A stretch of 58,717 nucleotides of DNA. Source: a virus (Duplodnaviria; Caudoviricetes). Made by a program: the position numbers and the translations under genes. Below the pieces are notes generated by a model. It was not told where the DNA came from. It saw nothing but the letters and a program-made list of their open reading frames with translations, and did not search any database. The stretch spans positions 1-58,717 of IMG/VR virus record IMGVR_UViG_3300048851_000095, one strand, 5' to 3'. Positions within the stretch are counted from its first letter, which is position 1. Every line of letters begins with the position of its first letter. Positions 1-58,623 of this stretch are shown here, one piece after another.

Positions 1-11
1 CTCCTTCACTG

Positions 12-224
12 TTAGCGGAAGTACACCCTCTCAATCTCGCGAGTCTTCTCGTTGCGCAGCAGAATTGACTTACCGTCTTTCTGAGCTTCTTCGAGAAAGA
101 CTTGTGTAGAAATCGCCCGCCTCAGGACCTCGGTCAGCGTCACGTGACTCTGCTCGGCAAGGTCTCGCGCAGCGCGAAGCACCTCGTCGGGCAGATTGAC
201 AGAGATTTTACTGACACCGGACAA
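12..224 (-). CDS. Ribbon-helix-helix (CopG-like) DNA-binding protein
   Basis: KISVNLPDEVLRAARDLAEQSHVTLTEVLRRAI fits RHH; TTG start at 224 preceded by AGGAGG. Confidence 0.75.
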   Translation of the reverse strand: MSGVSKISVNLPDEVLRAARDLAEQSHVTLTEVLRRAISTQVFLEEAQKDGKSILLRNEKTREIERVYFR

Positions 225-622
225 CTGATTCGCACCTCCTACGCGACCATCGCGTATATACAGAGTATTCCTCTGGTGCATACTTTGCAACGTATTCCGG
301 CCGCGGGCGCGGTCGGTCCCACCCGGCGGTACCCACCTGATCCCGACGAGGAACAGGCCGGTCTCGTTGAACTCGCAGACGGTCGCTACGGCTAGCACTA
401 CGCCGACAGCGACGACGTCACCATCCTGAAACGCGGCCCCGAAGCTGAATCGCAGACACCGTTCAACGGGAACCTGGTAGCGCCACCCCCCGTCTGATCA
501 TCCGTGGATGAGTTCGAGTACGTCGAAAACGGTGGCCTACTGCCGATCGAGGTGGCGGTAGTCGACCAGCTCCGCGCCCACGTCGCCGAGCTCCGGGCAT
601 CTGGTGTCCTGCCGGCGGATGA

Positions 623-832
623 TCAGTCGGACTTCGGCACGTAGTGCAGGCCGTCGAGGTGGATCGTCGGGAACCAGCGCATCGTGTGGGCGTAGATCAC
701 CGCGTCGCACCGCCGGCACGTCCACGTCCGGCACGGCGGATCATGGAGGTTGTCCCAGCCGACCAGCACCCGGCGCGGGCCGAGCTGGTGACCGTTCGGG
801 CACCGCTTCGGCGGATTCGTATCGGAGAACAC
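623..832 (-). CDS. Small Cys/His zinc-ribbon-like hypothetical protein
   Basis: CPNGH...C.TWTCRRC motif. Confidence 0.6.
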   Translation of the reverse strand: MFSDTNPPKRCPNGHQLGPRRVLVGWDNLHDPPCRTWTCRRCDAVIYAHTMRWFPTIHLDGLHYVPKSD

Positions 833-893
833 AGAGACCTCTCTTGAGGCTCAATCTCCGCCCGCTAAGCATATTGCCACCGCGCGACAGAAC

Positions 894-936
894 AAGACCG
901 CCCGAGCCATGACTTAGATGGCTCGGGCGGTCTTTC
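894..936 (+). terminator. Intrinsic terminator-like hairpin
   Basis: Perfect 17-bp stem AAGACCGCCCGAGCCAT/ATGGCTCGGGCGGTCTT with 7-nt loop. Confidence 0.7.
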
Positions 937-1068
937 GTCGTTGGGTCGAACCCTTCCCGATCAAACCCAACGGCGACACCGTAGAACTGGGCACCGACAA
1001 ACCGCCGTTCACGGACGGAGAGCCGAGGATTTGCGGCGATGACGGTCTATCCTGACCAGTAGGTAATT

Positions 1069-1119
1069 GCTGCTGGCCTTGGGCCGGGCGTGAAAGATTC
1101 ACACCCGGAAGGTCGCAGC
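1069..1119 (+). promoter_or_regulatory. Conserved late-gene leader hairpin, copy 1 (major tail)
   Basis: GCTGGCCTTGGGCCG at 1072-1086; 5' arm pairs with AAGGTCGCAGC over the SD; TATCCT (-10-like) at 1048. Confidence 0.8.
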
Positions 1120-1121
1120 TG

Positions 1122-1814
1122 ATGCCGAACACCACCTGGCCCTCGATCCGCGCGAAGCGTTTCCGTCTCACCAAACTGGATGAGTGCGGGATCCCCGTCA
1201 TCGGACCCAAGTCGACGATGTCGATCAAGTCATTCGTCAAAGCCGGGCTGTCGCCCGAGTACGAAGACGGCGAGGACACGTTCCTGAAGGACGGCAACGG
1301 CGACCCCGACGTCCGCGACACCGGCAAACCGGTCCTCAAGAACGTGGGCGTCGAGATCGAGTTCATCCGGATCAGCCCGGAAGCGTGGAACCTCATCACC
1401 GGCATGCCGCTGGCCGTCGACTACGCAGGCAACGCAGTCGGTGTCACCCTCGGTCAGATCATCGAAACGAACTTCGCTCTCGAGGTGTGGTCGGACGTAC
1501 CCGGGACCGCCTGCACCGGCGGCGCGAAGCCGTACGGCTACTTCCTGCTGCCGTTCGTGTCGTCGGGCAAGCTCGGTGAGGTGTCGATCGAGGAGGCCGC
1601 CGCGACGTTCACCCTGTCGGCGACCACAAAGGACGGCGCGGGCTGGGGTGCCGGACCGTACGACGTCGACCTGAACGAGGCTGCCGACGAAGAGGATCCG
1701 CCTGTGCCGGGCCCGCTGGTCACCCCGCTCACTGGAACGGACCACTTCCGGATCCAGCAGGTGCTGCTGCCGCCCCCGGCCGTGACTGCGGGTGCGGTTC
1801 CGCTGGCTGCCTGA
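1122..1814 (+). CDS. Major tail protein
   Basis: 230 aa; RLTKLDECG, NFALEVWSD, YGYFLLPF motifs resemble actinophage major tail proteins; first gene of tail operon. Confidence 0.8.
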   Translation: MPNTTWPSIRAKRFRLTKLDECGIPVIGPKSTMSIKSFVKAGLSPEYEDGEDTFLKDGNGDPDVRDTGKPVLKNVGVEIEFIRISPEAWNLITGMPLAVDYAGNAVGVTLGQIIETNFALEVWSDVPGTACTGGAKPYGYFLLPFVSSGKLGEVSIEEAAATFTLSATTKDGAGWGAGPYDVDLNEAADEEDPPVPGPLVTPLTGTDHFRIQQVLLPPPAVTAGAVPLAA

Positions 1815-2599
1815 TGGAGTGGCCGATCATCATTCCGCCGAAGTCGCAGTCTGTTTGGGATGCTGCCGAGGCGGATGACCAGGCGCGGGCCGAGGCGATG
1901 GCCGTGTCGTTGCTCCATTCGTTGACCGGACGGGTGTTCGGTTTGCGGGAGCAGACGGTGCGGCCGTGTTTCGGCCCGCCGCCTGGCTACTCCACCTACG
2001 CCGGATATTCCGGTGACGGTGGCCGAGCGGGCGCCGTGTTTTGGCCCGGCATCGCTTTAGGTGGCGTGAATGTGGTTGGTGCGTGCGGGTGTTCGTCGTC
2101 GTGCAGTTGCGTCGGCAAGTCGGAGGTAGCGCTGCCCGGACCGGTGCATTCGATCATCTCGGTGATGGTCGACGGTGTCGCGCTCACATCTGCCGCATAC
2201 AAGGTGAAGAACCGGCGCTGGCTCCTCCGGACCGACGGCCGTGAGTGGCCCCAGGTGCAGAACCTCGACGTCGACGACGACGAGGTGGGGGCCTTCACCG
2301 TCACCTACCTGCAGGGTGTCGCGGTCCCTGTGGCGGGTCAGGTCGGCGCCGGCGCGCTGGCGGTCGACATTCTGAAGTCGTTGACGGGTAAGGGCGGGGT
2401 GTGCAAACTCCCGCCGAACGTCACCTCAGTCAACCGTGAGGGTGTGTCGATGGACTTCGACCCCGCCGCCTACATCGAGGCTGGCCTGACGGGTGTTGAA
2501 GAGGCCGACTCGTGGATTCGGACGGTCAACCCGGGTGGGTTGCGACGGCGGCCGAGGGTGCTGATTCCTGGCCAGCGGGGTGCGGTGAAGCTGCGGTGA
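1814..2599 (+). CDS. Head-to-tail adaptor
   Basis: LHSLTGRVFG..VRPC, WPQVQNL, CKLP..VTSVNREGVS motifs; synteny. Confidence 0.7.
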   Translation: MEWPIIIPPKSQSVWDAAEADDQARAEAMAVSLLHSLTGRVFGLREQTVRPCFGPPPGYSTYAGYSGDGGRAGAVFWPGIALGGVNVVGACGCSSSCSCVGKSEVALPGPVHSIISVMVDGVALTSAAYKVKNRRWLLRTDGREWPQVQNLDVDDDEVGAFTVTYLQGVAVPVAGQVGAGALAVDILKSLTGKGGVCKLPPNVTSVNREGVSMDFDPAAYIEAGLTGVEEADSWIRTVNPGGLRRRPRVLIPGQRGAVKLR

Positions 2600-3144
2600 T
2601 CGACTGCAACGAGTACGGGTTGGCGGCGCAGCTCCTCGCTGTGCTCGGCGCTGAGGTCGGCGTGACCCGCGGAGGTGCCGACGACCTGATCCAGATGGTT
2701 CATCCGGGTGGTCAGCCACCGATGTACGGGTGCGGTCTGATGTGGACGAGGGTTGTTGGTACGGCGGCTGATTCGGGTGCAGGTGCGTTGCAGCGACCGG
2801 TGCGGGATGGTGTGGTGCCGACGTGGCGGGTCGAGCTGGAGATGGGTGTGTACCGCTGCTATCCGGTCCCCGAGGGCCGGGACGTGATGCCTGAACCGGT
2901 GGTGCTGGACAGCGCCGCCCGAGATGCGTTCGACGATGCGGCAGCGATGCGCCGCGCGGCCGTGGCTGCGTTCCTCGACGAGGACGGTGACCCGGACCTG
3001 TCGGTGACGCCGATGGCGTGGCGGCCGGTATCCCCGATGGGCGGTGTCCATGGCGGTTTGATGACGGTGCGGGTGATGGCTGATTTATCGGGTCAGGGCC
3101 CGGATGATGGGTGGCCGATGTTGCCGGGTGACCCGCGCGCCTGA
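2596..3144 (+). CDS. Virion structural protein (head-tail connector/tail terminator-like)
   Basis: GTGA overlap with upstream gene; ELEMGVYRC and W.P..P.GG..GG motifs; synteny. Confidence 0.55.
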   Translation: MIDCNEYGLAAQLLAVLGAEVGVTRGGADDLIQMVHPGGQPPMYGCGLMWTRVVGTAADSGAGALQRPVRDGVVPTWRVELEMGVYRCYPVPEGRDVMPEPVVLDSAARDAFDDAAAMRRAAVAAFLDEDGDPDLSVTPMAWRPVSPMGGVHGGLMTVRVMADLSGQGPDDGWPMLPGDPRA

Positions 3145-3185
3145 CTTCATATGTCGGGGTAACGGTGGACTGTACCCTCGGTGTC

Positions 3186-3623
3186 ATGAGTGATGAAGAA
3201 GTGACAGTTCGTGCGACTCAGTCGATCGCCGGGTTCGTGGAGGGCGAGACGGTGACGCTCGTCCGGTCTCGGTTCGTGGACCGGCTGATCGCGCAGGAGA
3301 GTCTGGTCGTGGTCACGGACGGCCCGGTCGGGACGGTCGAGTCCGGGCTGATCAAGGTCGTCGAGGGCGACCCCAAGGACCCGGCTTACACAAACACCAG
3401 CCACCTCGGAGTCGAGGCCGATCATCCGTGGGTGGTTGACGGCAAAGTTGTTGTGCCGCCTCGCAACGGATCCCGCGAGCTGTGGGCCAACTTCCTGACC
3501 GCGGTGAAGTGGGCGTTTCCCGGAGAAGCAACACGCGACGCGCTGATCGCGATCTGGGACGAGCACGCCGACGACATCGACCTCGCCTACACAGCAACCA
3601 GCGAGACTCTCGATGGCGAGTAA
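3186..3623 (+). CDS. Hypothetical protein with C-terminal PxRNxSxExWAxF helical domain
   Basis: ORF in tail operon; domain shared with 55235..55615. Confidence 0.6.
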   Translation: MSDEEVTVRATQSIAGFVEGETVTLVRSRFVDRLIAQESLVVVTDGPVGTVESGLIKVVEGDPKDPAYTNTSHLGVEADHPWVVDGKVVVPPRNGSRELWANFLTAVKWAFPGEATRDALIAIWDEHADDIDLAYTATSETLDGE

Positions 3624-3894
3624 GCCGCAGCGGTTCCGCAAGCTGCCTGCCGAGATCGACGCGCTGCAGCTCACCCGCGACAACGTCGCCGAGGTCGAAG
3701 CCTTTATCAACGGCAAGGCCAAGGACGCAACACTCCCTGGGCCGGGCCGCGGCATCACTCATGGCGTCAAGATTCACACGCTCGAAGGCGACATGCTTGC
3801 CGCGTGGGGTGACTGGATCATCAAGGGCGTCGCGGGGGAGTTCTACCCGTGCAAGCCGGACATCTTCGCTGCGACCTACGAGGCGGTGACCTGA
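3613..3894 (+). CDS. Small conserved phage protein (PGDYG-like family)
   Basis: FRKLP.EIDA..IHTLEGDM.A..GDWIIKGV.GEFYPCKPDIF..TYE signature. Confidence 0.8.
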   Translation: MASKPQRFRKLPAEIDALQLTRDNVAEVEAFINGKAKDATLPGPGRGITHGVKIHTLEGDMLAAWGDWIIKGVAGEFYPCKPDIFAATYEAVT

Positions 3895-4343
3895 TGCCTG
3901 TCGAGATGCATCGCGACGTCATCGAGCGGGAGCTGGACCAGGCGGCAGAGAAGTGGGCACACAGAGTCGGCCGCCGAGTCACCACCGCAGCGAAGAAGAT
4001 CGTCTCCGCTGACGGACACGTCGACAGCGGCAGGATGCGCGCTGCCATCGACTACGCCGTTGATCGCACCGGACCCACCACCAAGCGAGTCATTGTCGGC
4101 TGCAGCGTCGACTACGCCAAGTACTTCCACACCGGCACCGGTATCCACGGCCCCGCCGGGCGGCCCATCGTCCCGCTGCGGCCACTCAACCCGGCCGGGC
4201 GGCCGTCGGCCCTGAAGTTCACACCGAAGGGCAGCAAAGACGCAATCTTCCGGCGCAGCGTGGCCGGTATGAAACCAGATCCGTTCCTCACCAAAGCGCT
4301 CGTCGAAGTCCTCGGCGACACCGGCACCATCCGCGAACTCTAG
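3894..4343 (+). CDS. HK97 gp10-like neck/tail completion protein
   Basis: VDSGRMRAAI, YAKYFHTGTG, PDPFLTKAL motifs. Confidence 0.7.
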   Translation: MPVEMHRDVIERELDQAAEKWAHRVGRRVTTAAKKIVSADGHVDSGRMRAAIDYAVDRTGPTTKRVIVGCSVDYAKYFHTGTGIHGPAGRPIVPLRPLNPAGRPSALKFTPKGSKDAIFRRSVAGMKPDPFLTKALVEVLGDTGTIREL

Positions 4344-4357
4344 GAGACCGACAACAC

Positions 4358-5038
4358 ATGGCAACCTCCCGCACGACTGCAGCGAAGAAGGCCCCCGCGA
4401 AGAAGGCGGCACCCCGCAAGGCCGCCGCCAAACCCGCCGCGGTCGACGCGGTCGACGCGCAGCTCGAGTCCATCCAAGCAACCGACGACCCGGAGCTGCT
4501 CCGCGAGGAGGCGGCGAAACTCCGGAAGCTGGCCGCCGAACTCGGCGGCGACGCGGACCTGACCGCGATGGCCGAGGAGAAAGAGGCCGCGGCGAAAGCG
4601 ATCGACGGCCTCGACGCCACCACCGACATCGATGCCGACGACGACGAAGACGACTTCAGCGACATCCCCGAAGAGTTCCGATTCACCACCCGCAAAAAGG
4701 AAGGCGACGAACGGGAACCCGAGGTCATCCCGATCGTCATCGACGGCCGCCGCTGGGAGCTGACCCAGCCGTCCGAGTCCGCACTGTTCATTCTCGCCGC
4801 CAAAATCACCAGCGAAACAGCCACCAACCAGGACCGCACCCTGTCGATGATCGACCTCGTCCGTCTGTGCATCGGCCCGGTCGCCTGGTCGCACCTGTAC
4901 CAGCTCATGATGGATCCCCGTTCAGACTTCGACGACGACGGAGTCGGCGAGATCGCGATGCGGATTGTCGAACGCTGGGGTTCCGCCACACCGAAGAACC
5001 GCGCCGAGAAGCGTCGGGCCGCACGCGCAAGGAAGTAG
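4358..5038 (+). CDS. Tail assembly chaperone (N-terminal, G-like)
   Basis: Position before tape measure; ends PKNRAEKRRAAR. Confidence 0.65.
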   Translation: MATSRTTAAKKAPAKKAAPRKAAAKPAAVDAVDAQLESIQATDDPELLREEAAKLRKLAAELGGDADLTAMAEEKEAAAKAIDGLDATTDIDADDDEDDFSDIPEEFRFTTRKKEGDEREPEVIPIVIDGRRWELTQPSESALFILAAKITSETATNQDRTLSMIDLVRLCIGPVAWSHLYQLMMDPRSDFDDDGVGEIAMRIVERWGSATPKNRAEKRRAARARK

Positions 5039-5659
5039 ATGGCGGGACCGCCCTGGCTTGACGTCCCGAAACAGTGGGTGTTCGACGGCCACCGCATAGG
5101 GGTAATCGTCCCGCCCACAACGGATCTCGTGCAGGCCCTGTTGATCGACAACGAAGCATGCGGGATGTGGATCCTCACCGCCACGATGGACCGTTTCGAC
5201 GCGATGTGGATGTACTCCCGCATCTTCGAACCCGAACTGCCGCTGGTGCAGTTCGATCTGCTCGACGAGATCGCCGACACCCTCGTCGCCCGGATTGTCG
5301 GGATACCGCGGTGGACCGCGACCGCGATCTGGAAGGAAACGTTGGGGGCATGGCCCCTGGTCGACGGCGAACTCCAAGCCCGAGGAATCAACGTCACCGA
5401 CCTCCCGCCGCATCGCGCGACGAACGCTGTCATCGGTGTGTGGCGTGGTTTCTATTCCGGCGGTGACGGATTCTCGAAGTGGTGGGACAAGATGAACCGC
5501 GAACCCACCCGGGTCCTGATCCGGGAACTCGAACGTGAGGACGACGAGTCGGCAGCGAACGATTTCGCCGCGGTGATGGCGTTGTCGCAGGGTGTGCAGG
5601 CCGCACCACGCGTCGAAGATAGTCAGGTTGTCGACCAGATACCCGATACCCTGCAGTAA
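5039..5659 (+). CDS. Tail assembly chaperone (T-like)
   Basis: Immediately upstream of tape measure; in frame with previous ORF. Confidence 0.6.
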   Translation: MAGPPWLDVPKQWVFDGHRIGVIVPPTTDLVQALLIDNEACGMWILTATMDRFDAMWMYSRIFEPELPLVQFDLLDEIADTLVARIVGIPRWTATAIWKETLGAWPLVDGELQARGINVTDLPPHRATNAVIGVWRGFYSGGDGFSKWWDKMNREPTRVLIRELEREDDESAANDFAAVMALSQGVQAAPRVEDSQVVDQIPDTLQ

Positions 5660-5667
5660 GGAAGTTT

Positions 5668-5717
5668 GACGCCGCTGGCCTTGGGCCGGGCACGTTGCCT
5701 GGGAGGCCGCGGCGTTG
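5668..5717 (+). promoter_or_regulatory. Conserved late-gene leader hairpin, copy 2 (tape measure)
   Basis: GCTGGCCTTGGGCCG at 5674-5688; CGCCGC-T-GGCCTT pairs with GAGGCC-GCGGCG; TACCCT at 5647. Confidence 0.8.
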
Positions 5718-8700
5718 TCTAGTCCATGGGCTGATGCTCGCGTTGAAGCGTCGCTGGACTACGGCAACATCGACGAGGAACTCCAACAACGTTTGGTGCG
5801 GTCCACTGAGATCGCGTCGAAGGCGTGTCAGAAGCATTTCCGTGCGATCGAGCGGGCTGCCCGGACTTCGGCCACCAACACGGGGCAGAACTGGGAACGC
5901 GCCGCGCTGCGGGTATCGCGGGCGATGGAGACGGCTGAGACCCGCGGGGGGAAAGCCCTTGCGGCGCTGGCGTTGCACGGCCAGAAGGCGGCAGCGAAAC
6001 TCCGGGATTCGTTCGACGACGCCTTTGACCGGATCCTCGCGAAAGCGACATCGGTCCTCGCCTCCGTACGCGCGGAGCTGAGATCTCTGCCGAACGCGAC
6101 CGTCAAATTGACTGTCGAGTTCAGCAAGACACAGGCCGAAGTGGCGGCACGGGCGATCCATACACACCTGCGCAACTTTGTGCGTTTGGTTCTCGGGCCG
6201 ATCGAGTTCGGGGTGAGCCTGAACGACACCGCAGCTCGCGCCCGGCTCACTGAACTCACTCGCACACGGACTGTCCGTATCAACACAGTCACGGGTAGCG
6301 ACCGCGGCAGCAGTGGTGGTGGTGACGTAGACCGGATTGGCCGGTCCGGACGTGCGCTGTCGGGGATCACGTCGATGCTCGGTTCGATCGCGTCCGGCGC
6401 CGGCACCGCGGCGAAATACCTCGGGATCGCCGGTTCGGCGGTCGTCGCGCTCGGCGCCGCGACCCCTGCTGTCGCCGCTCTCGCGGCTGTCCTCGCATCT
6501 GTGGGTGTGGCCGCCGGTGGCGCTGCTATCGCCGGTGTGTCGGCCCTGGCCCTCGCAGTGGGCACCCTGAAGGTCGGCATGTCCGGAGTCGGGGACGCGT
6601 TCACCGCGCTCGGTGCCGAAGCGACCGGTGGGGGTGGCGCCGCGGTCGACGTCGCCAAACAGATGGCGGACGCGCAACGCACGCTCACCCGGGCGGTCCG
6701 CGACGAGAAAGACGCACAGAAAGATGTCTCCGACGCCCGCAAGGATGCACTCGAACGTCTCGAGGACTACAACCTCGAAGCCAAGGGCGCCGCGCTGTCG
6801 GAGAAGGATGCGGTCCTTTCACTGAAAGAGGCCCGCGAAGACCTCGCCAAAGGCGGGTTCGACAACGGCACCGAACGAGAACGCGCCGCTCTCCGCGTCG
6901 AGCAGGCCGAACAGCGACTGGCCGAAACCCGAGAGTCCAACGGTGACCTCGAATCCGAGATCGCCGACGCCCGGAAGAAGGGGGTCAACGGTGCCGACGA
7001 GGTGGTCGACGCGAACCGCCGCCTCGAGGACGCGACCTATGCCGTCAGGGACGCCCAGTACGCCCTGAACCAGGTCGGGAAAGACAGCGGCAGCGGAATC
7101 GACAAGGCCGCAGAAGCTCTCGCGAAACTGTCCCCCCACGCCCGTGACTTCGTCCTCGCGATCCGGGGGGTCAAACCCGCCTGGGACGAGATGAAGAGCG
7201 GCGTACAGGATTCGCTGTTCGCTGGTCTCGCTGACCGGATCCAACCCCTCGCGAACACCTACCTCCCAATCCTCGGCGCCGCGATGACGACCGTCGCCGA
7301 CGGCTTCAACGAAGGCGCAATCTCAGCCCTCAACTTCGCCCAATCCGGCACCGGCATCTCCGTCATGTCGACACTGCTGGGCGAGTCGGCGAACATGGCC
7401 GGCAACCTCGGATCGACACTTGGGAACCTCGTGCCCGGACTCGCAGCAATCGCAGCCGGTGCAGGACAGGCCTTCTCGCCACTGACGGACGGGATGGCTG
7501 GCGTCGTCCGCGGCTGGTCCGACCGCATGGTCGAACTGCAGCAGAACGGCGGGATGCAGGCGTTCTTCGAAAAGGCGATGGACGTCGCATCCCAGTTCGG
7601 TGCCGTCCTCAGCGACATCGGCGGAATCATCTCCGGCGTTTTCAACGCCGCGAACTCCGCCGGGTCCGGCCTGATGGGAACCCTCGGTCAGGTCCTCGAC
7701 CAGGTCAACACGTTCGTCAACAGCGTGCAGGGCCAAGAGGCACTCACCACATTCTTCTCGTCGATGATGACCGCCGTCGGCGCAGTCCTGCCCGTGTTCA
7801 TGGAACTCGCGAGCATCGTCGGAACCGTTGTCGCGCCGGTCATCGCGCAACTGGCGACCACCCTCGGTCCCGTACTGATGCAGGTCGCGAGCGCGCTCGG
7901 CGACAGACTGCGGGCACTGGCTCCTGCCTTCGGTCCGGTCGGCGACGCCATCGCCGCGATCGGCACCGCGCTGGTCCCGATCCTCCCGATCCTCGGAAGG
8001 CTGATCGGGTCATTCCTTGAACTCGCGGGCCCGATCATCGGGTCCCTCGCGACCGCGCTGGGCCCGATTCTGGAAGTCATTGGCAACGGGCTGATCGCAG
8101 CGTTCGAGGCACTGCAACCGGCGATCGGCCCCGTCACCGACGTCCTAATGATCCTGTCCGAGGTTCTTTCGGAGTACTTCACTCAGTACGCAAGCGTCCT
8201 GGTCGAGATCATCAACGGTCTGGTGCCGGTGATCACCACTCTGGCAACAGGATTCGGTGAGCTCCTCACGGCGCTGTTGCCCGTTCTCCCGATCCTTGGT
8301 GACGCGTTAATTCAGATCATCACCGCGGTCGCGCCGATGATCCAGGAGATGGCGGGGGTGTGGCTCGAGGTCGTCCAGGCGATCCTGCCGCTGCTACCGC
8401 CTCTGATCCAGATCGTGGCCAACCTCCTGCCGCCGCTGATCGAGCTGATCACCGCGCTGCTCCCGGTGACGATGATGGCGGCCCAAGTGTTTGCGCAGCT
8501 GATCGTGGCGATCGCACCGATCCTGACCGTGTTGGCGCAGGTGATCGCCAAGTTTTCCGAGGTGATCGCCGCGGTGGTGTCGTTCTCGGCGCAGGTGATC
8601 GGAACGGTTGTCGACTTCGTCGGGAAGGTCGTCGGGTTCTTCGGTGGGCTAGTCACCCAGGTGACCGACAAAGTTGGTGGCGTCAAGGACGCGGTAGTCA

Positions 8701-10676
8701 CCGGATTCAACGGCATTGTCGAGTTCTTCAGAGGACTGCCTGAAACCATAAAGAGCTTCGCAGGCAACATCTTTTCGCCGATCTTCGACGCAGCAAAGGC
8801 TGTGTTCAACGGGATCGCTGATCTGTGGAACAACACCGCCGGCAAGCTGTCGTTCAAGGCACCGAAGTGGGTGCCCGGCATCGGCGGCAAGGGCTTCGAT
8901 ATGCCCGACATTCCGAAGATGCGCACAGGCGGTCTGGCCCGCGGGCCGGGGGGACCGACTGGCGACAAGATTCTGTCGTGGCTGTCGAACCGCGAGTTCG
9001 TCACCCGCGCGAAAGTTGTTGCCCAACGCGGTGCTCTGCCATTCCTGCAGGCGTTCAACTCCGGCCGCATCACCATGGACGACATCCGCCGCGGCCTTCC
9101 CGGCTTCGCTGCTGGCGGCCTCGCCGGCCGCGAACCGTACGGCCTACCGGCGGGCAGCAGCGGCAGCGACGTCTTCCCGCAGTGGGTGTACGACGTCGCC
9201 AGCCAGTTCAACCTCACCCCGTCGACGTATGCCGGGCATCAGGAGCGGGACGGCCAGAACAAGGGGATCGACTGGTCGGGGTCCGTCCCGGATATGCAGC
9301 GGTTCGCCGAGCACCTCGCGGGAATCTCGGGCGAGTTGGAGCAAGTCATCTGGATGAACCCGGAGACAGGTCAACAGATCGGTGTTGCGGACGGGCAGAT
9401 GGTCGGGCCGGGTACCGATCAGCCAGGCTACTACCGCGACGACTGGGCGGGTCACCAAGACCACGTCCACACCCGGCAGTCGTATGCGTTCGGTGGCGCG
9501 GCGAGCGACCCGAATAGCCCTGTCGAGGATCCGACCGGCGGTAGCTCGGCAAGCGCGCTCACAGCGAGTTCATCGAGCACACCGATCGGTTCAGGTATCG
9601 GTTCCGGCACGACCGGCGGGTCAGCGTCGTGGGGCAACTCCGGGGGCAGCAGCAAGTTCAACACCGCGGCGGATGCGAAAGCGAATGGCATCACACCGGT
9701 GTGGGTGGAGAACTGGCCGTCGACGATGGGCGGCGGGTCGAGCGACTCGGGAAGCTACACCAGCTCGGATACTGGCGGCGCCCTCACCGCGGATACGGGC
9801 GCACCGGCGTCGACGACGGACACGATCGCGCTCGTGCAGAATCCCGACGGCACGTACTCGGCTGTGGACCCTGAGTGGGACAAGCTGATCAAACGTGAGT
9901 CGGGCGGCCGCGCTGACATTGTGCAGGGCGTGCAAGACGCCAACTCTGGCGGGAACGAAGCGAGCGGACTATTCCAGATCGCAAAGGGAACGTGGGCGTC
10001 AAACGGCGGCACGAACTTCGCGCCGACCGCCGGCGAGGCGACGGCCGAGCAGCAGGCCGAGATCGCAGCGAAGATCTTCAACGCGCAGGGAGGCAGCCCG
10101 TGGGGCTCGGGTGCTGGGCAGAACCTTGGCCGCGAGAACGAGGAACTGCTACGCGCCGGTGTGCAGCGGGCGGGCAGTGTTCCTGTCACACCTGAGGGCA
10201 CGGTGCCCGTCACCATCACGGGCGCTGAGCTGCCCGCGAACAGTGACCCGAACGCGGCACCGCAGCTCGACTACACGCCGACCACGACAACCAATTCGGC
10301 ATCGATGCCGGACCCCAGCACCGCCACGACTCCGACCTCACCATCGTCGACGGACATGCCGTTCGGTCCCGATCGGGCCAACACGTGGCTGGGGGAGCAG
10401 GACTTCGCCGCGCAGGCCGGGACCTGGGCGACGGACGCGTCGAAGGAAATCCTCGGCCAGTTCGCCGAACCATTCGGCCTGTCCGGCTACGTCGACAAGG
10501 GAATCGACCAAGTCGTCGAATACCTCCGGCAGATGCTCGAGCAGCAGAGGAACCAGGCGCCCGGCGAGGTGAAGTTCGCCGACAGCGTGATCTTCAACGG
10601 CATGGACCCGCAGAAGACGAAGCAAGAGGCCATGTCGGGGATGACGCAGGTCACCGAAACCTTCAGGAGCGGATAG
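5715..10676 (+). CDS. Tape measure protein with C-terminal peptidoglycan hydrolase domains
   Basis: 1653 aa, Ala/Gly-rich amphipathic repeats; STYAGH..IDW..HQDHVH motif; Rpf/transglycosylase-like RESGG..GLFQI..TW..EQQ. Confidence 0.95.
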   Translation: MSSPWADARVEASLDYGNIDEELQQRLVRSTEIASKACQKHFRAIERAARTSATNTGQNWERAALRVSRAMETAETRGGKALAALALHGQKAAAKLRDSFDDAFDRILAKATSVLASVRAELRSLPNATVKLTVEFSKTQAEVAARAIHTHLRNFVRLVLGPIEFGVSLNDTAARARLTELTRTRTVRINTVTGSDRGSSGGGDVDRIGRSGRALSGITSMLGSIASGAGTAAKYLGIAGSAVVALGAATPAVAALAAVLASVGVAAGGAAIAGVSALALAVGTLKVGMSGVGDAFTALGAEATGGGGAAVDVAKQMADAQRTLTRAVRDEKDAQKDVSDARKDALERLEDYNLEAKGAALSEKDAVLSLKEAREDLAKGGFDNGTERERAALRVEQAEQRLAETRESNGDLESEIADARKKGVNGADEVVDANRRLEDATYAVRDAQYALNQVGKDSGSGIDKAAEALAKLSPHARDFVLAIRGVKPAWDEMKSGVQDSLFAGLADRIQPLANTYLPILGAAMTTVADGFNEGAISALNFAQSGTGISVMSTLLGESANMAGNLGSTLGNLVPGLAAIAAGAGQAFSPLTDGMAGVVRGWSDRMVELQQNGGMQAFFEKAMDVASQFGAVLSDIGGIISGVFNAANSAGSGLMGTLGQVLDQVNTFVNSVQGQEALTTFFSSMMTAVGAVLPVFMELASIVGTVVAPVIAQLATTLGPVLMQVASALGDRLRALAPAFGPVGDAIAAIGTALVPILPILGRLIGSFLELAGPIIGSLATALGPILEVIGNGLIAAFEALQPAIGPVTDVLMILSEVLSEYFTQYASVLVEIINGLVPVITTLATGFGELLTALLPVLPILGDALIQIITAVAPMIQEMAGVWLEVVQAILPLLPPLIQIVANLLPPLIELITALLPVTMMAAQVFAQLIVAIAPILTVLAQVIAKFSEVIAAVVSFSAQVIGTVVDFVGKVVGFFGGLVTQVTDKVGGVKDAVVTGFNGIVEFFRGLPETIKSFAGNIFSPIFDAAKAVFNGIADLWNNTAGKLSFKAPKWVPGIGGKGFDMPDIPKMRTGGLARGPGGPTGDKILSWLSNREFVTRAKVVAQRGALPFLQAFNSGRITMDDIRRGLPGFAAGGLAGREPYGLPAGSSGSDVFPQWVYDVASQFNLTPSTYAGHQERDGQNKGIDWSGSVPDMQRFAEHLAGISGELEQVIWMNPETGQQIGVADGQMVGPGTDQPGYYRDDWAGHQDHVHTRQSYAFGGAASDPNSPVEDPTGGSSASALTASSSSTPIGSGIGSGTTGGSASWGNSGGSSKFNTAADAKANGITPVWVENWPSTMGGGSSDSGSYTSSDTGGALTADTGAPASTTDTIALVQNPDGTYSAVDPEWDKLIKRESGGRADIVQGVQDANSGGNEASGLFQIAKGTWASNGGTNFAPTAGEATAEQQAEIAAKIFNAQGGSPWGSGAGQNLGRENEELLRAGVQRAGSVPVTPEGTVPVTITGAELPANSDPNAAPQLDYTPTTTTNSASMPDPSTATTPTSPSSTDMPFGPDRANTWLGEQDFAAQAGTWATDASKEILGQFAEPFGLSGYVDKGIDQVVEYLRQMLEQQRNQAPGEVKFADSVIFNGMDPQKTKQEAMSGMTQVTETFRSG

Positions 10677-10679
10677 CCG

Positions 10680-11615
10680 ATGGCGTGCGGAATTGTGAAC
10701 CCGAACCGGAAAGCGCAGCTGATCCTGCGTGACTCCGACGGTGTCGACGTGGTCGTCCTGGACCTCTTGGACTACGACAGTGGGCAGCGGGCGTCGACGG
10801 CCATCACCCTCGGCGAGGACATGGAGAACCTGTACCACACGCCGATCACGCAGGTCCGCAAAAACTATGCGTATCAGGAGGGTTCGACGTTGTCGGACTA
10901 TCCGCGTACGGAGGAACGCGTACCGAAGATCACAATCATCACGAAGGCGAAAGACACAGCCACGTGGGAGCGGATCGAGTCGCTGTTGTGGCGGGTTCTG
11001 TCTACGAGGTACGACTGCTTTCTCCGGCTGTACTCGACGCGCGGTTGGCGAGAGCTGAAGGTCCGCCGACTCGGCAGCCCGAGCGACAAGACGAAACTCA
11101 TCCTCGGCCGCAAACCTTTCCGCGAGTGGAAGGTCGAGCTCCTCGCGTGCGACCCGTTCTGGTATTCCGAGGAGATCGCCGGCCCGGTGCTCAAGCGCTC
11201 TGATATGACGCTCGCCTCGGGCGCCTACACCGGCATGTATCCGCTGGCCAACCCCTGCGACCAGCGCTGCTACCTGCAGTGGGCGTCCGGCCAGATCACG
11301 ACAACCGAGACATGGACACTGCCCGACGCCGACGCGGTCGACGACGAGGGCGACCCGATAGTGCACCAGCTGCCCTCACTGGGTGCCGGGAAAGAGTTCC
11401 TGGTCGACACCTATCCAGACCGTCCCACTCTGTGGACGCGGGACCTCGGCCAAGACTGGGCGCGGATGAACGGCGAAGACTTCGACTACTGGCTTGAGCC
11501 CTCAACACCTGAAGAGCGGATGGTTCCGGTCAAGTTGGTTGGCGGTACGGCAGATTCGCAGATCCAGGCATTCTTCGTGCAGCGGTGGGATCGCTGGTTC
11601 GGCGGTGAGATCTGA
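10680..11615 (+). CDS. Minor tail protein (distal tail, Dit-like)
   Basis: Follows TMP; LLACDPFWY, NPCDQ..Y.QW motifs. Confidence 0.8.
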   Translation: MACGIVNPNRKAQLILRDSDGVDVVVLDLLDYDSGQRASTAITLGEDMENLYHTPITQVRKNYAYQEGSTLSDYPRTEERVPKITIITKAKDTATWERIESLLWRVLSTRYDCFLRLYSTRGWRELKVRRLGSPSDKTKLILGRKPFREWKVELLACDPFWYSEEIAGPVLKRSDMTLASGAYTGMYPLANPCDQRCYLQWASGQITTTETWTLPDADAVDDEGDPIVHQLPSLGAGKEFLVDTYPDRPTLWTRDLGQDWARMNGEDFDYWLEPSTPEERMVPVKLVGGTADSQIQAFFVQRWDRWFGGEI

Positions 11616-13240
11616 TGCCCCCGTTGCTCGCGCCCGCAGAGGTGCGTTCACAGGTGCGGATGCAGCAGGCCGAGTTCCTGCAGCGCGCGAACTCCCGCCC
11701 GATCATCGACCTGTACGACAAGAACTGGGACAAGCACTATCCCTTGATCGGGGAAACTCAAGCCAAATTCCTTGAGAAGCTGAACGACACCGGCGAGGGC
11801 AACCTTGTCATCTTCGGCACCAACAAACTGCGTGACTTCATCGTCGACGAGCTCGGCGAGTGGGAAGACCTCCACATCCGTGTCCGCACCGGTGTGAAGG
11901 AGTGGACCGGCAAGGCCGCCGAGATCCTCGACGAGTCCGACGAAGAGGGCTTCGAGTTCATCTCGATCAAGTTCCTCCACGAGTACGAGCACATCAAAAA
12001 GATCATTTGTGCGTCGAACCCGCTGTTCCCGATGGAGCTTCAATTCCCGAAGATCTGGGCGTACGCCGGCCCGGCGGTGTTCGGGATCACCGCCACCATC
12101 TTCATGAACCTCCTCCGGCGGTTCGCGTTGCCGTGGACGTTCTCCGACAACCTGTTTGACCCAGCGTCGTGGCTGTCCAACTTCAATCCGGAGAACTGGC
12201 CGATCGTCGTTGTCCCGAAACCGTTCCTGACGGATACGTCGATGTGGTCGATCATCGCGACCCGCTTCGGCAACGCACACGATGTGTTCGGGCCCACGCT
12301 GAAAGACGCGGGCATACAGATCAAGGTGTACCGCTGGTTCCCGGGTATGCCACAGCCGGCGCCGGATCACTACACCCTGACGAAGCCCACCCTGGTCATC
12401 GATGTCATCGACAAGTCGGGATACAAGGGCCCGTCCGGGACGCTGCTCGATGGTCTCGCGCACCTTGTCACCGAGGTGGCCGACGACCTGATCAACGAGG
12501 TCGTCTCGGAGACAACGTTTATCGAATCACCCGAGTACTCGATCGGCGGGTTCCTGGGCACCACCCGCGAAAACCCGTGGGTCGTGTTCAAAAACGCCCA
12601 GCGATCGGGCGGTATCTCGGGTGTCCAGTCGTGGAAGATGATCCGCCACAAAGCGACCGCGTCGGCGATCATGACCGGCGGCCGCTCACCCGACTGGGTG
12701 AACTCCGGCATCAAACTGCTGATGAACGCCGCTCTCGGCTACCTCGGCGCGCTGATCGGCAACCCCGGTCTTGCGCTCGGGGTGTTCGACGGCATGGTCG
12801 AAGACGTCGTTCTCGCGTTCCATCGGATACCGAACCCCATCCGCGTCGAAAGGATGGGCGCCCGAGGCCCGGCGTACGGCGAATACTGGGAGTCATCGGG
12901 TGGCACCGGTGCGAGCCTCCACGCGCTCGAGGCGATCCGGACCGGCTTCCACCGCACCCGCGCGTACACCACGTTCCAAATCAAGTGCCGGGCCGGCGGA
13001 CCGTACTGGCCGGGTGCCCACTTCGACACCGGCGACCGGATCGCGGGAGAGATCGGGAAGTCGGGGAAGCTGTATGTCGACCACGTGTACTCGCTGGGCT
13101 TCGGCTGGGACCGGGCAGCGGATGTGGATTGGGACATCGCGTTCGGTGACAACCAGATCGACGATGAGCCGGGCGCAGTCTTATCGCGGCAGGTCGCGAT
13201 GATCAAGCATGTGATCCAGGAGCTCGGTGTTTCGGCCTGA
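11615..13240 (+). CDS. Minor tail protein (baseplate hub-like)
   Basis: IDLYDKNW, FLHEYEH.K..IC.SNP..P...QFPK, GGRSP.WVN, HFDTGDR motifs. Confidence 0.85.
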   Translation: MPPLLAPAEVRSQVRMQQAEFLQRANSRPIIDLYDKNWDKHYPLIGETQAKFLEKLNDTGEGNLVIFGTNKLRDFIVDELGEWEDLHIRVRTGVKEWTGKAAEILDESDEEGFEFISIKFLHEYEHIKKIICASNPLFPMELQFPKIWAYAGPAVFGITATIFMNLLRRFALPWTFSDNLFDPASWLSNFNPENWPIVVVPKPFLTDTSMWSIIATRFGNAHDVFGPTLKDAGIQIKVYRWFPGMPQPAPDHYTLTKPTLVIDVIDKSGYKGPSGTLLDGLAHLVTEVADDLINEVVSETTFIESPEYSIGGFLGTTRENPWVVFKNAQRSGGISGVQSWKMIRHKATASAIMTGGRSPDWVNSGIKLLMNAALGYLGALIGNPGLALGVFDGMVEDVVLAFHRIPNPIRVERMGARGPAYGEYWESSGGTGASLHALEAIRTGFHRTRAYTTFQIKCRAGGPYWPGAHFDTGDRIAGEIGKSGKLYVDHVYSLGFGWDRAADVDWDIAFGDNQIDDEPGAVLSRQVAMIKHVIQELGVSA

Positions 13241-13273
13241 CCTCGGTTGCCAGGGGACGGTTAGACTCTGACC

Positions 13274-13840
13274 ATGTCGAGACGTGGAAACCAGCAGCGT
13301 AACCGCGGTTTGGTACGAGACCCCAAGACCGGTGTCGTCCTCGCGCGGAAGCACGAGCACCCGTTGCGGCATGTCTTCGAAGCTGTCCCGAACGGCACCG
13401 CGATCCCGTTCAACATGCCGCCGGAGATGCAGCAGGTGTTGGCGATCCATGTGTTCGACAACCTGAAGTGCGGGCCGCCGTCGGATGACGCGGTGTACCG
13501 GCTGGTGCGGGCTAAGTCGAATCCGGATGCACCGTTGGGGACGGGCGGGGTGATGTGGGTTCCGAAGACGGTCCCTGACTCGGCATTCGATGTGCCGGGT
13601 GTGCAGGTCGGTGCGGTCGCGGTCGAAGGTGTTCCGGATATCGAGGACCTCGATGACGCCCAATTGGATGTGTTGGAAGCGAGGATCGCTGACCGGAAGA
13701 TCGCGCAGACCCAGGCCCAGAATCTGGATGTGCCCGTGGAAACTGAGGCACCGGAATGGCGACAGTGGCGTGAACAGTATTTGGCCGAGAAGGCCGAAGA
13801 GTTGAAACGGCAGGCTGCGTCTGACGAAAGCGGCGCCTAG
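13274..13840 (+). CDS. Minor tail-associated protein (DUF2744/gp29-like)
   Basis: Synteny and size; weak motif resemblance. Confidence 0.55.
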   Translation: MSRRGNQQRNRGLVRDPKTGVVLARKHEHPLRHVFEAVPNGTAIPFNMPPEMQQVLAIHVFDNLKCGPPSDDAVYRLVRAKSNPDAPLGTGGVMWVPKTVPDSAFDVPGVQVGAVAVEGVPDIEDLDDAQLDVLEARIADRKIAQTQAQNLDVPVETEAPEWRQWREQYLAEKAEELKRQAASDESGA

Positions 13841-14910
13841 TGGGTACGTCACCAGATGGGTTCTCCCCGGCGGGCGCGTTTGGTGCCGGTATCGGGCCGG
13901 GCTACCAGAACGCGGACCCGGAAGCGGGTGGGGTACAGCAAAATCTGTGGCTGACTGAGGCGCTCGAAGAGGTCCGCAATCAGCTACTGAACAATCTGCT
14001 CGGCGGGTTTCTCAACGTGCCTGCCGCCATCAGCGATGGCATTGTGTCGATCGTCGTCGCCATCACCGGTGCTCTCGGCGACCTCGCGGACCTCGCTGGG
14101 TGGGCGCTCGGCGTTCAGACAGCGATCACCACGAACACTGAAGCGATCGCAGCGTTGCAAGACATCGCTCCCGCCTCTCCGGTGACGCCGGCGTATGTCG
14201 CGGATATCGACGACATGGCGTCATGCGGCCGTGGGGAGTTGATCCGGTGGGCTGTCGATGTTGACGCAAACCAGTTGCAACACCGTCACTCGATTCCCTC
14301 ATCGGGATCGAACACCGGTTACGAAAACCCGAACATCACGACTTCGGTGACGGTCTCTCCGGTCACCCCTCTGTTCACGCCGGAGGTGCAAAAGGATCCG
14401 GTAGGGATCGGTGGGAAGGTCTACTACTGGCCTGTCGTCGCCGACCGGAAGGGCCACGCGAGTCTGTTGCACTGGAATGTCGGAGAGGACACTTCACTGT
14501 TCGACATCGTCGAATACAACATGGCGTTGTGCGCGTACAACCCGAGCAACGGGAACATCGAAAAGGTGTGGGACTCGGGCAATATTGCATCGACGTTGGC
14601 AGCGACGACGACACCACAAGAGGCTGAGATCAATATGGCATTGACCGAGGAGCAGGGTGCTGTAACACCCGGGCAAATCTTGTTCGTCGCTCACCGCCAA
14701 CGCGCGCAAGGTCTCCTGATGACACCCCGATCCATCGCGTACGCGCCCCGGACAACACGGCAGCGGCCGGCGTCGATGATCCTTCGTGCCCCTTCGTATG
14801 TGACTTCCGCGTTCTACACGGGGATTCCGTCGTCGATCGCTCTCACATCGCTCACTCATGTGTTGACTCGGCTGCCGTGGTCGGGCATCAAGGTGGAGGC
14901 GGCAGCGTGA
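13840..14910 (+). CDS. Minor tail protein / putative receptor-binding protein
   Basis: N-terminal S-P-D-G motif and beta-rich C-terminus; end of tail module. Confidence 0.65.
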   Translation: MGTSPDGFSPAGAFGAGIGPGYQNADPEAGGVQQNLWLTEALEEVRNQLLNNLLGGFLNVPAAISDGIVSIVVAITGALGDLADLAGWALGVQTAITTNTEAIAALQDIAPASPVTPAYVADIDDMASCGRGELIRWAVDVDANQLQHRHSIPSSGSNTGYENPNITTSVTVSPVTPLFTPEVQKDPVGIGGKVYYWPVVADRKGHASLLHWNVGEDTSLFDIVEYNMALCAYNPSNGNIEKVWDSGNIASTLAATTTPQEAEINMALTEEQGAVTPGQILFVAHRQRAQGLLMTPRSIAYAPRTTRQRPASMILRAPSYVTSAFYTGIPSSIALTSLTHVLTRLPWSGIKVEAAA

Positions 14911-15170
14911 AAGACCAGGACGGGTTCCATGTGACCGCCGCCGAGCTCGCAGCGTTCCGCGCCAGCGGCAAGCAGCACTGGTGGCTGAACTACGACGGCA
15001 CCACGAACGTCTACACCGATGAGTACGAGCTGTCTCCAGGGTGGCCGGTGTATCTCGGATCGGTTGGTGTGTTCGCACAGCTGCAGGATGACGATCTGCA
15101 GCGCGCGTGCGATGAGCAACTAAACCCTGCGTTGCGGGCGAACGCACACCTCCTGCCGCCGGCGCCGTAG
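14907..15170 (+). CDS. Hypothetical protein
   Basis: GTGA-coupled to upstream gene. Confidence 0.6.
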   Translation: MKDQDGFHVTAAELAAFRASGKQHWWLNYDGTTNVYTDEYELSPGWPVYLGSVGVFAQLQDDDLQRACDEQLNPALRANAHLLPPAP

Positions 15171-15235
15171 AACGATTCGCCGAGGCGGGTTGCAGACCAG
15201 GGAACTGTTCGACAGTTACCCTAGAGCCAACCGCA

Positions 15236-15287
15236 CTGCTGGCCTTGGGCCGAGTGAAAGATCATCACACTCACCCGGAGGCGGCTC
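15236..15287 (+). promoter_or_regulatory. Conserved late-gene leader hairpin, copy 3 (endolysin)
   Basis: GCTGGCCTTGGGCCG at 15238-15252; GCCT pairs with AGGC of the SD; TACCCT at 15217. Confidence 0.75.
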
Positions 15288-16790: not shown

Positions 16791-17200
16791 TGACCATTCA
16801 AAACCCGCCCGCCCGCCTCGTCTTCGGCCGTGAGCCCGCCGCATGGTCCGGCGCCGTCATGGCCGCGGTCGCGCTTGTCGTCGCGTTCGGCATCAACGTG
16901 TCGACCGAAACCCAGGGCATCATCCAGGCTTTCGTGAACGGCATCCTGACCCTGATCGTCGTGATCACGGTGAAGGAGAATGTGCTGCCCGCGATCGTCG
17001 GCGTCATCCAGACCGGGCTGCCGCTGCTCGTCGCGTTCGGTTTCCACATCACGTCCGAACAACAGGGCGCTCTCCTCGCCGCGGTGTCGCTGTTCCTGAC
17101 CCTCGCTGTCACCCGCCCGCAGGTCACCCCGAAGGCGACTCTCGTGGCCGTGCAGACCGGGCCCGACACCTTCGACGCAACCCGGTCCGCTGGCGAATGA
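16787..17200 (+). CDS. Holin
   Basis: About 4 hydrophobic segments, FGREP and TRPQVTP motifs, coupled to lysin A. Confidence 0.8.
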   Translation: MMTIQNPPARLVFGREPAAWSGAVMAAVALVVAFGINVSTETQGIIQAFVNGILTLIVVITVKENVLPAIVGVIQTGLPLLVAFGFHITSEQQGALLAAVSLFLTLAVTRPQVTPKATLVAVQTGPDTFDATRSAGE

Positions 17201-52375: not shown

Positions 52376-52411
52376 ACCGCTGGTGGCGGGTTACAGTGGT
52401 TCACGAGTAGA

Positions 52412-52459: not shown

Positions 52460-52464
52460 CCCCG

Positions 52465-57639: not shown

Positions 57640-57643
57640 TTGC

Positions 57644-58610: not shown

Positions 58611-58623
58611 CTCGCTCTGCCGT

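Follow-up and report, generated by a model that had tools for sequence, protein, structure and literature searches.

A conserved late-gene leader with a near-invariant hairpin in a temperate actinophage and its relatives

How might a temperate phage set its capsid, tail and lysis genes to work together? This question is raised by IMG/VR virus record IMGVR_UViG_3300048851_000095, a complete record of 58,717 bp (99% complete) that was analyzed over its full length and is called the window here. The window as a whole is a temperate actinophage. A 15-mer, GCTGGCCTTGGGCCG, lies shortly before four of its late genes, and a reading made from the letters alone (the sequence-only reading) had proposed that it belongs to a leader hairpin that sequesters the Shine-Dalgarno (SD) sequence and acts as a translational switch. 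We found that the 15-mer belongs to a real module in late-gene leaders, which is strongly conserved across a broad actinophage lineage and apparently has not been described before. The SD-sequestering switch holds in this phage but is not the conserved core of the family. To our knowledge, late-gene control in actinobacteriophages is largely unexplained despite thousands of sequenced genomes, and the element, being conserved, offers a concrete way into the question for phages that infect Gordonia, Rhodococcus, Mycobacterium, Streptomyces and other hosts.

Four copies of the leader in the window

The sequence-only reading had placed the 15-mer at 1072, 5674, 15238 and 52415 and had seen no further copy. 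Exact search, in which the reverse strand was included, confirmed this: all four matches were on the + strand and zero on the − strand. When up to one mismatch was allowed, the whole record still gave 4 forward and 0 reverse matches, and a backwards control gave 0. At up to three mismatches 8 matches were found, of which the 4 extra ones each carry 3 mismatches and are at chance level (shuffle mean 3.71); three of these (13093, 49894 and 54735) fall within mapped open reading frames (ORFs) and the other (34511, − strand) in a gap of the gene map. A repeat finder independently yielded a 4-copy family (D16; 21 nt, 86-100% identity). In addition, a covariance model of the hairpin detected only these four copies in the window (E 1.4e-5 to 5.5e-4), the next match having an E value of 0.89 and lying inside the tape measure gene.

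The distance from the 15-mer to the start codon is 41-50 nt at all four copies. The genes that follow had been taken for those of the major tail protein, tape measure protein, endolysin and major capsid protein, with which the PHROGs assignments agree. The sequence-only reading had also noticed a TANNNT hexamer 15-21 nt before each 15-mer, and hexamers were found at these sites. The parts of the four copies are as follows:

1048-1053, + strand: TATCCT, −10-like hexamer of copy 1, ending 18 nt 5′ of the 15-mer
1069-1124, + strand: copy 1 leader, with hairpin 1 core GCUGGCC-UUG-GGCC(G)GGC at 1072-1089, hairpin 2 at 1084-1108, an outer helix in which 1069-1080 pairs with 1109-1119, SD GGAAGG at 1107-1112 and ATG at 1122
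1122-1814: major tail protein, downstream of copy 1 (PHROGs, E 1e-68)
5647-5652, + strand: TACCCT, −10-like hexamer of copy 2, ending 21 nt 5′ of the 15-mer and lying within the end of the upstream ORF 5039-5659
5666-5717, + strand: copy 2 leader, with core at 5674-5691, an outer helix in which the 5′ flank GACGCCGC plus GGCCUU pairs with GAGGCC plus GCGGCGUU, SD GGGAGG at 5701-5706 and TTG start at 5715
5715-10676: tape measure protein, downstream of copy 2 (PHROGs)
15217-15222, + strand: TACCCT, −10-like hexamer of copy 3, ending 15 nt 5′ of the 15-mer
15231-15290, + strand: copy 3 leader, with core at 15238-15255, SD GGAGG at 15277-15281 and GTG at 15288
15288-16790: endolysin, downstream of copy 3 (PHROGs)
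52392-52397, + strand: TACAGT, −10-like hexamer of copy 4, ending 17 nt 5′ of the 15-mer
52411-52467, + strand: copy 4 leader, with core at 52415-52432, hairpin 2 at 52428-52447, SD AGGAG at 52453-52457 and GTG start at 52465
52465-54303: major head protein, downstream of copy 4 (PHROGs, E 2e-140)

The fold that had been described for copy 1 is its computed minimum free energy structure (−36.7 kcal/mol, z −4.79; covariance model 35.0 bits, E 2.4e-5), and copy 2 adopts the same fold (−40.5 kcal/mol, z −3.49; covariance model E 3.1e-5). In both, outer and inner helices are predicted to stack into a long imperfect duplex. Copy 3, which has GCCGAGU in place of the GCCGGGC of the other copies, was detected by the covariance model (E 5.5e-4), and its fold alone was not significant (z −1.01). 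The same applies to copy 4 (36.1 bits, E 1.4e-5; z −0.91), whose flank AGCUGCUGG can pair with CCGGUGGCU and thereby cover the GTG start at 52465. Leader stability ranges from −26 to −40 kcal/mol.

Copies 1 and 4 are 91% identical across 44 nt (D1 of the repeat finder). Copies 1, 3 and 4 have hairpin 2 in common (1069-1112, 15235-15278 and 52412-52455), while the orthologous leaders of Gordonia phage Clown differ among themselves, and it follows that gene conversion between leaders occurs. Part of the identity among these three copies thus looks like recent gene conversion.

Conservation among actinophages

Virion proteins of the window are 36-50% identical to those of Gordonia phages Clown, Bakery, Twister6 and Phinally (~50% for the major tail protein and 36-42% for the major capsid protein), with remoter kin in Cluster-B-type Mycobacterium phages, Microbacterium phages and Streptomyces phages. 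In the parts of Pope et al. 2017 (PMC5559632) consulted, Twister6 is assigned to cluster DC and Phinally to cluster DE. Neither a 3-kb piece of the window nor the 86-nt capsid leader had a match in nucleotide searches of a phage collection, and a search of viral contigs with the major tail protein gave one distant locus, from which the motif is absent. Relatives at 36-50% protein identity keep the element before the same genes, which marks it as a cis-element under selection that is tied to four late genes and supports the earlier proposal of a regulon.

In related IMG/VR capsid loci the motif precedes capsid and tail genes, and at least 20 of 48 capsid loci have it. Multi-copy records, denoted here by our handles, carry all their copies on the gene strand: 4 each in G001 and G002, 3 each in G003 and G004, 2 in G005 and 5 in the fragment G006. 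Among named phages the distribution is as follows:

Gordonia phage Clown: covariance model matches at 14462, 17746, 21928 and 35484, before gp23 (capsid), gp26 (tail), gp33 (tape measure) and gp44 (lysin A)
Gordonia phage Phinally: element before capsid, tail and lysin A genes, with a degenerate copy before the tape measure gene
Streptomyces phage YDN12: element before capsid and tail genes, a variant before the relocated tape measure gene and a remnant before the lysin gene
Mycobacterium phage Qyrzula: element before the capsid gene only
Newman: capsid leader without the element

The degenerate or variant copies of YDN12 lie at ~4150-4250 and ~25450-25515 of its locus (L225). The degenerate tape measure copy of Phinally (L226, ~15150-15258) has kept TACCCT and hairpin 2 and has lost the 5′ arm of hairpin 1. 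Extra hairpin copies stand before a further gene at L233 3229 and L234 1994 (both upstream of the capsid module) and at G006 C1:1668, the fifth copy of that fragment.

The element also occurs in prophage contigs and contigs of metagenome-assembled genomes labelled Rhodococcus, Micromonospora, Actinoplanes, Micropruina and Gordonia, and in one labelled Anaerolineae. In three whole host genomes good covariance model matches were found inside the prophage only, among the 150 of thousands of first-look candidates that were scored per genome. The four best non-prophage matches in host genomes, inspected from among many with lower scores, lie in coding-like sequence and have no upstream TANNNT. Two broader searches were set aside: at least 117 single-copy matches to the exact 15-mer in IMG/VR were judged chance and left unused, and the loose pattern CTGGCN{3,7}GCCG occurred at a frequency equal to that of its backwards control, so that only repeated identical strings were retained.

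A different capsid-leader family, which contains GTGCTGCCACGGTCCGGC, was observed in 13 of the 48 capsid loci (L138, L148, L149, L151, L153, L154, L157-L160 and L167-L169). Its layout, ~80 nt before the capsid start, consists of TATGAT followed by a CCGUG-CUGC-CACGG hairpin. This leader is single-copy in 5 of 5 whole records, and the multi-copy design is therefore specific to the present family.

The hexamer is conserved together with the hairpin. TANNNT was found upstream in 39 of 45 family copies, as compared with 2.5% of random positions in the same loci, a count in which the copies are not independent, many of them being orthologues. It is mostly TACNNT or TATCCT, and its type follows the gene across phages, TACAGT standing before capsid genes and TATCCT before tail genes. 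For instance, GGGTTACAGT precedes the capsid gene in six related loci (L123 and L125-L129), L131 has CTACAGT, and tail-gene copies of relatives hold CTATCCTGA at the equivalent position; the lysin copies of G001 and G003, like that of the window, have TACCCT. Sigma-A-type promoters have a −10 TANNNT and a start site ~7 nt downstream, the −35 being optional in actinobacteria. Judging by its letters and position, the hexamer is probably a sigma-A-type promoter element, even though a scan for two-hexamer sigma-70 promoters gave no match. Its spacing to the hairpin is variable (7-32 nt), as would be expected if promoter and downstream element were separate parts. Readings of the motif as a sigma-54 or extracytoplasmic function (ECF) sigma factor promoter were rejected on spacing and because actinobacteria are not known to have sigma-54.

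A ~5.5 kb insert (55628-58717 plus 1-1121) lies between the head genes and the major tail gene and has no counterpart in Clown, Phinally, YDN12 or Qyrzula. It contains an ORF with an RHS-repeat match (55628-56185), a 485-aa ORF and three reverse-strand ORFs without a family or PADLOC match. Given that the tail copy follows this insert with its reverse-strand ORFs, the tail gene needs its own promoter.

What may read the hairpin

Hairpin 1 has a practically invariant stem, GCUGGC(C/U)-loop-GGCC(G)GGC, in which a conserved U.G pair is included. Over 34 copies two registers fit equally: register A, CUGGC(C/U)-loop-GGCCGG, has 6 pairs and 97.1% of cells paired, and register B, GCUGGC(C/U)-loop-GGCC[G]GGC, has a bulged G, 7 pairs and 96.2% of cells paired, whereas slid registers pair in 14-71% only. 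Applied to a MAFFT alignment of 17 leaders, RNAalifold picked register B and recovered hairpin 1 alone, hairpin 2 being misaligned. Substitutions in the stem, C-to-U and G-to-A, retain pairing via wobble. Three pairs never vary and three vary on one side only.

The loop is 3-7 nt long, with about 14 types between records, and is G-rich toward its 3′ side. Within a genome it is uniform: in 14 of 15 records with at least two copies the loop is identical across all copies, the exception, L234, being one base off (the leaders of G005 and G018 are the same, so that these two do not count independently). Between G001 and G002 the same 2 loop positions differ in 4 of 4 copies, with 3 of 63 other positions differing in the capsid leader and 4 of 63 in the tail leader. 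The uniformity of loops within genomes suggests a phage-specific reader. The sequence-only reading had described an invariant core; the stem is indeed nearly invariant across phages, but the loop, including its anti-SD CCUU, differs between them.

With regard to the level at which the element acts, evidence points both ways. Strict strand bias, the conserved U.G pair and wobble-preserving changes, loops of 3-7 nt and an adjoining hairpin 2 of differing sequence favor RNA, and pairing kept via wobble, with the U.G conserved, is more to be expected of RNA than of a DNA palindrome. Invariant half-sites with a variable center and a position just past the promoter favor DNA. We tentatively prefer the account in which the invariant hairpin is an RNA recognition site for a putative phage factor that tunes translation or stability of the late mRNAs, although the case for it falls somewhat short of an even one. 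According to this account, each of four late expression units (capsid, tail, tape measure and endolysin) would have the module ahead of its first gene, and the module would begin with the −10-like hexamer of sigma-A type, probably a promoter. The transcript would then start with a 5′ leader RNA that opens with the small near-invariant hairpin, to which, in this phage, a second hairpin and a long-range helix burying the SD and start codon would be added. A putative trans factor, most likely phage-encoded, would recognize the invariant hairpin, and once bound it would open a leader that is otherwise occluded, so that the four late mRNAs would be set together in translation and perhaps in stability. 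The data show the repeat, the genes it precedes, its conservation, the accompanying −10-like hexamer and, in this phage, occlusion of start regions; action at the RNA level, the existence of the factor and the direction of the switch are what we infer.

Structure predictions for the window agree with the occluded state. The unpaired probability of the region from −15 to +3 is 0.03 for the tape measure gene, 0.16 for tail, 0.28 for lysin and 0.37 for capsid, corresponding to ranks 1, 2, 5 and 20 in occlusion among 51 window genes. Occlusion is unexpected for a very abundant protein such as the major tail protein, which suggests regulated opening or processing. The closing helix, in which the variable 5′ flank plus GCUGG is complementary to the leader's own SD/start region, is stronger for cognate than for non-cognate partners (−11.38 vs −10.20 kcal/mol; permutation p 0.002, n=33); an earlier cognate test with motif-rich arms was weak (p 0.016) and was superseded by this flank-only test. 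Energy tests omit the identical duplicate leaders L126-L130, L134, L139, L156 and L166; L172 (a coding-strand chance match in G005) and G006_c4 (no assignable start codon) were dropped. Hairpin 2 shares a few bases with the 3′ arm of hairpin 1. Its stem sequences differ, and of 32 distinct leaders 15 form it with significant stability (mean z −1.27, t-test p 8e-4). A translational switch is plausible but unproven, and the SD sequestration proposed by the sequence-only reading stands for this phage but is not universal in relatives, the helix being copy-specific in 11 of 33 leaders. In the window the cognate helices rank 1, 1, 1 and 3 of 33.

A number of observations weigh against the preferred account. 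The sequence-only reading had looked to covariation among homologs as a check, and hairpin 1 proved to be a case of conservation with no covariation, both sides of a pair having changed in 1 of 238 cells; the RNA nature of the element is therefore not proven. Uniform loops could be homogenized by gene conversion between leaders without any factor. TANNNT is missing from 6 of 45 family copies, and the hairpin can therefore exist without the hexamer. Hairpin 2 is absent from about half of the leaders, including Phinally tail and lysin, G003 tail and lysin and two G006 copies. The closing helix is bimodal, with a rank of 3 or better in 11 of 33 leaders only and several lysin and tail copies near the bottom; G001, G003 and Phinally have it weakly or not at all in their lysin copies. 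At rank 20 of 51 the capsid start region is not unusually occluded, and the anti-SD CCUU is not conserved because it lies in the phage-variable loop. In equilibrium folds of the full leader the probability of hairpin 1 does not exceed 0.13 in any of 19 leaders, and forcing this hairpin costs 0.3-13 kcal/mol (mean 6.8). The local hairpin had been expected to free the SD; when it was forced, accessibility of the start region did rise, but only partly, from a mean of 0.32 to 0.45 and, in window copies, from 0.20/0.06/0.21/0.36 to 0.47/0.24/0.29/0.51, since the flank helix can persist as a three-way junction.

Searches for the factor belong with these points. In a tblastn comparison of 68 window ORFs with Clown, Phinally, YDN12 and 50 kb of Qyrzula, no common non-structural protein was found except a RuvC-like resolvase, and PHROGs and Pfam scans of the submitted window ORFs named no RNA polymerase and no N-like protein. 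Two small Cys proteins had been suggested as activators, and neither gained support from Pfam, homology or fold searches. One of these is

52232-52375, + strand: small M-x-C-N-C protein, DUF7196-like, 47 aa, directly before the capsid leader (Pfam PF23826, E 1.7e-5, below the curated cut-off)

A gene for such a protein directly precedes the capsid leader in the window, G001-G004, G006, Phinally, YDN12, L231-L235 and Qyrzula, where it is an unannotated 57-aa ORF between gp13 and gp14 (L224 12154-12327). Newman, which lacks the hairpin, has a counterpart without the Cys pair. However, of 14 records checked, 5 (G005, G007, G010, L150 and L152) were found to have no DUF7196-like protein at this place. 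Its AlphaFold2 model (predicted local distance difference test score 78) has a strand-strand-helix-strand order, and Foldseek comparison with PDB gave a best E value of 0.49, with no match at 0.001 or below and no RNA-binding protein; the next matches were to a copper-chaperone domain. A word-index homology search gave 2 proteins, and the atlas gave DUF7196 clusters only. The protein is a candidate factor by position only. The other suggested activator, ORF 623-832 (− strand), matched neither a Pfam nor a PADLOC family, and the four relatives searched gave no homologue of it.

Several other explanations deserve to be weighed against a phage factor that reads RNA. By analogy with the RNase III sites behind internal promoters of T7, the module might combine a promoter with a processing or stability hairpin that has no dedicated regulator, host RNases cutting or protecting the leader to give uniform stable 5′ ends for the four late messages. 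The order of a −10-like hexamer and then a stable leader, the long duplex of copies 1 and 2 and the failure of the tblastn comparison to reveal a factor all fit such a scheme, in which copies without TANNNT may act inside polycistronic RNA. We nevertheless consider it unlikely, because host RNases leave unexplained a stem that is invariant from Mycobacterium to Actinoplanes hosts while the long duplex is unconserved, as well as the uniformity of loops within genomes and the restriction of such hairpins to prophages in the host genomes scored. Alternatively, the hairpin sequence could be a DNA-level site in the initially transcribed region, where a late regulator would bind CTGGC-N5-7-GCCGG or a non-template-strand hairpin and would either block RNA polymerase or load an antitermination factor, for which Q/qut and RfaH/ops are models. 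Invariant half-sites around a variable spacer are the usual protein-DNA pattern, the site lies 7-32 nt past the −10-like hexamer, its central bases are genome-specific, and, in the parts of PMC3203893 consulted, DNA binding is favored by the authors for the comparable extended start-associated sequence (ESAS) repeats of Cluster K mycobacteriophages. Set against this, phages differ in spacer length (5 to 7), the T vs C asymmetry (U.G in RNA) has been retained and substitutions leave RNA pairing intact through wobble. Moreover, there are no U-tract terminators after the element, some copies have no TANNNT, and the lack of copies at early promoters or near the repressor gene speaks against an immunity operator. 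On balance we consider a DNA-level site unlikely to the same degree as the processing element.

It is rather improbable that the hairpin is read by a component of the Actinomycetota host (a ribosome standby site or enhancer, RNA polymerase or an RNA-binding protein) with a neutral loop homogenized by gene conversion. In its favor, phages from seven or more host genera have the same stem, the window shows signs of conversion between its leaders and also encodes RecE/RecT-like proteins, and the loops are G-rich at the 3′ side. However, the good matches among the 150 candidates scored in each of the three host genomes were all in prophage, and the switch of the G001 and G002 loops in 4 of 4 copies with conserved neighbors is hard to obtain by drift and conversion. 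A functionless repeat spread by recombination could likewise draw on gene conversion, but it is very improbable indeed, given the same position before the same four genes despite 36-50% protein identity and a stem that stayed invariant while the flanks diverged. A bolder form of the phage-factor account, possible yet on the unlikely side, takes the loop for a private address code that a fast-evolving phage factor reads in order to activate the capsid, tail, tape measure and lysis genes jointly; close relatives would change the code of all their copies simultaneously and so keep their late regulons orthogonal. If this were true, a superinfecting relative or a resident prophage could not fire the lysis and virion genes of the other. 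A loop-reading factor, if it exists, would represent a new class of late activator and provide a ready set of orthogonal expression switches for actinobacteria. Several carriers are cultured with a laboratory host (Clown and Phinally on Gordonia terrae 3612), and reporter, loop-swap and pull-down work is therefore feasible at once.

Elsewhere in the window, an ORF before the terminase large subunit gene (38049-38570) matches a PHROG labelled 'RNase E', a name that Phinally gp01 also bears. We doubt this label because Pfam shows a weak DUF5681 match only, and the product is, from its matches, more probably a small terminase or DNA-binding protein than an RNase.

Comparison with known systems

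Rfam scans of the whole window at gathering thresholds gave 0 matches, and scans of the four loci at E ≤5 gave two unrelated weak matches, neither overlapping the element, in agreement with the earlier statement that it is not a named RNA family. Just 5′ of copy 1, positions 832-936 have a sub-threshold Rfam match to the Streptomyces small RNA Scr3920 (25.7 bits vs a gathering score of 88, E 0.16), which is probably due to chance. Literature searches by topic and by motif strings returned nothing on the element, although supplementary genome maps of cluster papers could hold relevant notes. The parts of PMC5559632 consulted mention no promoter, stem-loop or motif.

The window encodes lysogeny-type genes, namely two serine-integrase-like genes and one Cro/CI-type helix-turn-helix protein. 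The two integrase-like genes are close together (18881-19783 and 20809-22200), and the shorter product (300 aa, from 18881-19783) matches the C-terminal part of the profile only. An immunity operator or stoperator was rejected as an identity for the element: there are only four copies, none of them in the integrase/repressor region at 18.9-25.4 kb, and Qyrzula carries the motif with no integrase annotated within the 50 kb of its record covered. The absence of a copy near the integrase and repressor genes, together with carriage by Qyrzula, makes such an operator unlikely. As to intrinsic terminators or attenuators, no terminator-like site was found at the three copies within 1-17000, and no T-run follows any of the four hairpins.

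Com of phage Mu is a four-Cys zinc-finger protein encoded next to its single target gene, mom. The logic proposed here would resemble it in having a hairpin upstream of a start-sequestering structure that is opened by binding of a small phage protein. Unlike Mu, there are four targets, and Pfam scans of the two small Cys ORFs revealed no Com-like protein (DUF7196 only for one, nothing for 623-832). In lambdoid phages the stems of boxB vary and antitermination acts at early operons; the RNA polymerase that uses T7 promoters is phage-encoded. Both N/nut boxB and T7-type promoters, each matched to a reader specific to the phage, share with the present element a cis sequence that is identical within a phage and differs between relatives, but here the stem is invariant, the loop alone varies and the targets are late genes. 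In T7, internal promoters served by its own polymerase are followed by RNase III sites, long duplexes that are cut by this host enzyme, whose sites span about two turns of duplex RNA. The combination of promoter and structured RNA along the late region before structural genes is similar, whereas what is conserved in the present element is a hairpin of 6-7 bp, the long duplex not being kept by relatives. We regard Mu Com/mom, lambda N/boxB, T7 promoter/RNase III and RfaH/ops as functional analogies, to none of which the element would belong as a member.

A closer parallel is found among actinophages. As described in the parts of PMC3203893 consulted, the start-associated sequence (SAS) of Cluster K mycobacteriophages is a 13-bp sequence, 5′-GGGATAGGAGCCC, that is present in 11-19 copies 3-7 bp from the start, contains the SD and occurs at non-structural genes only. 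Cluster K SAS/ESAS and the present element are both short oriented repeats before start codons of actinophage genes that are conserved with downstream gene families, and both have a companion inverted repeat with a subgroup-dependent consensus and a suspected phage or host factor (PMC3203893, in the same parts). The present element differs from SAS in having 4 copies, which lie 41-50 nt from the start and apart from the SD, precede virion and lysis genes only and each have a −10-like hexamer. When the window was searched for the SAS consensus, a single site with 2 mismatches was located, which lies within the lysin gene on the − strand and is at chance level (shuffle mean 1.13). Thus, as far as sequence and layout allow comparison, the element is not itself a member of this group, and SAS/ESAS appears to be the nearest described actinophage system to the late-gene leader reported here.

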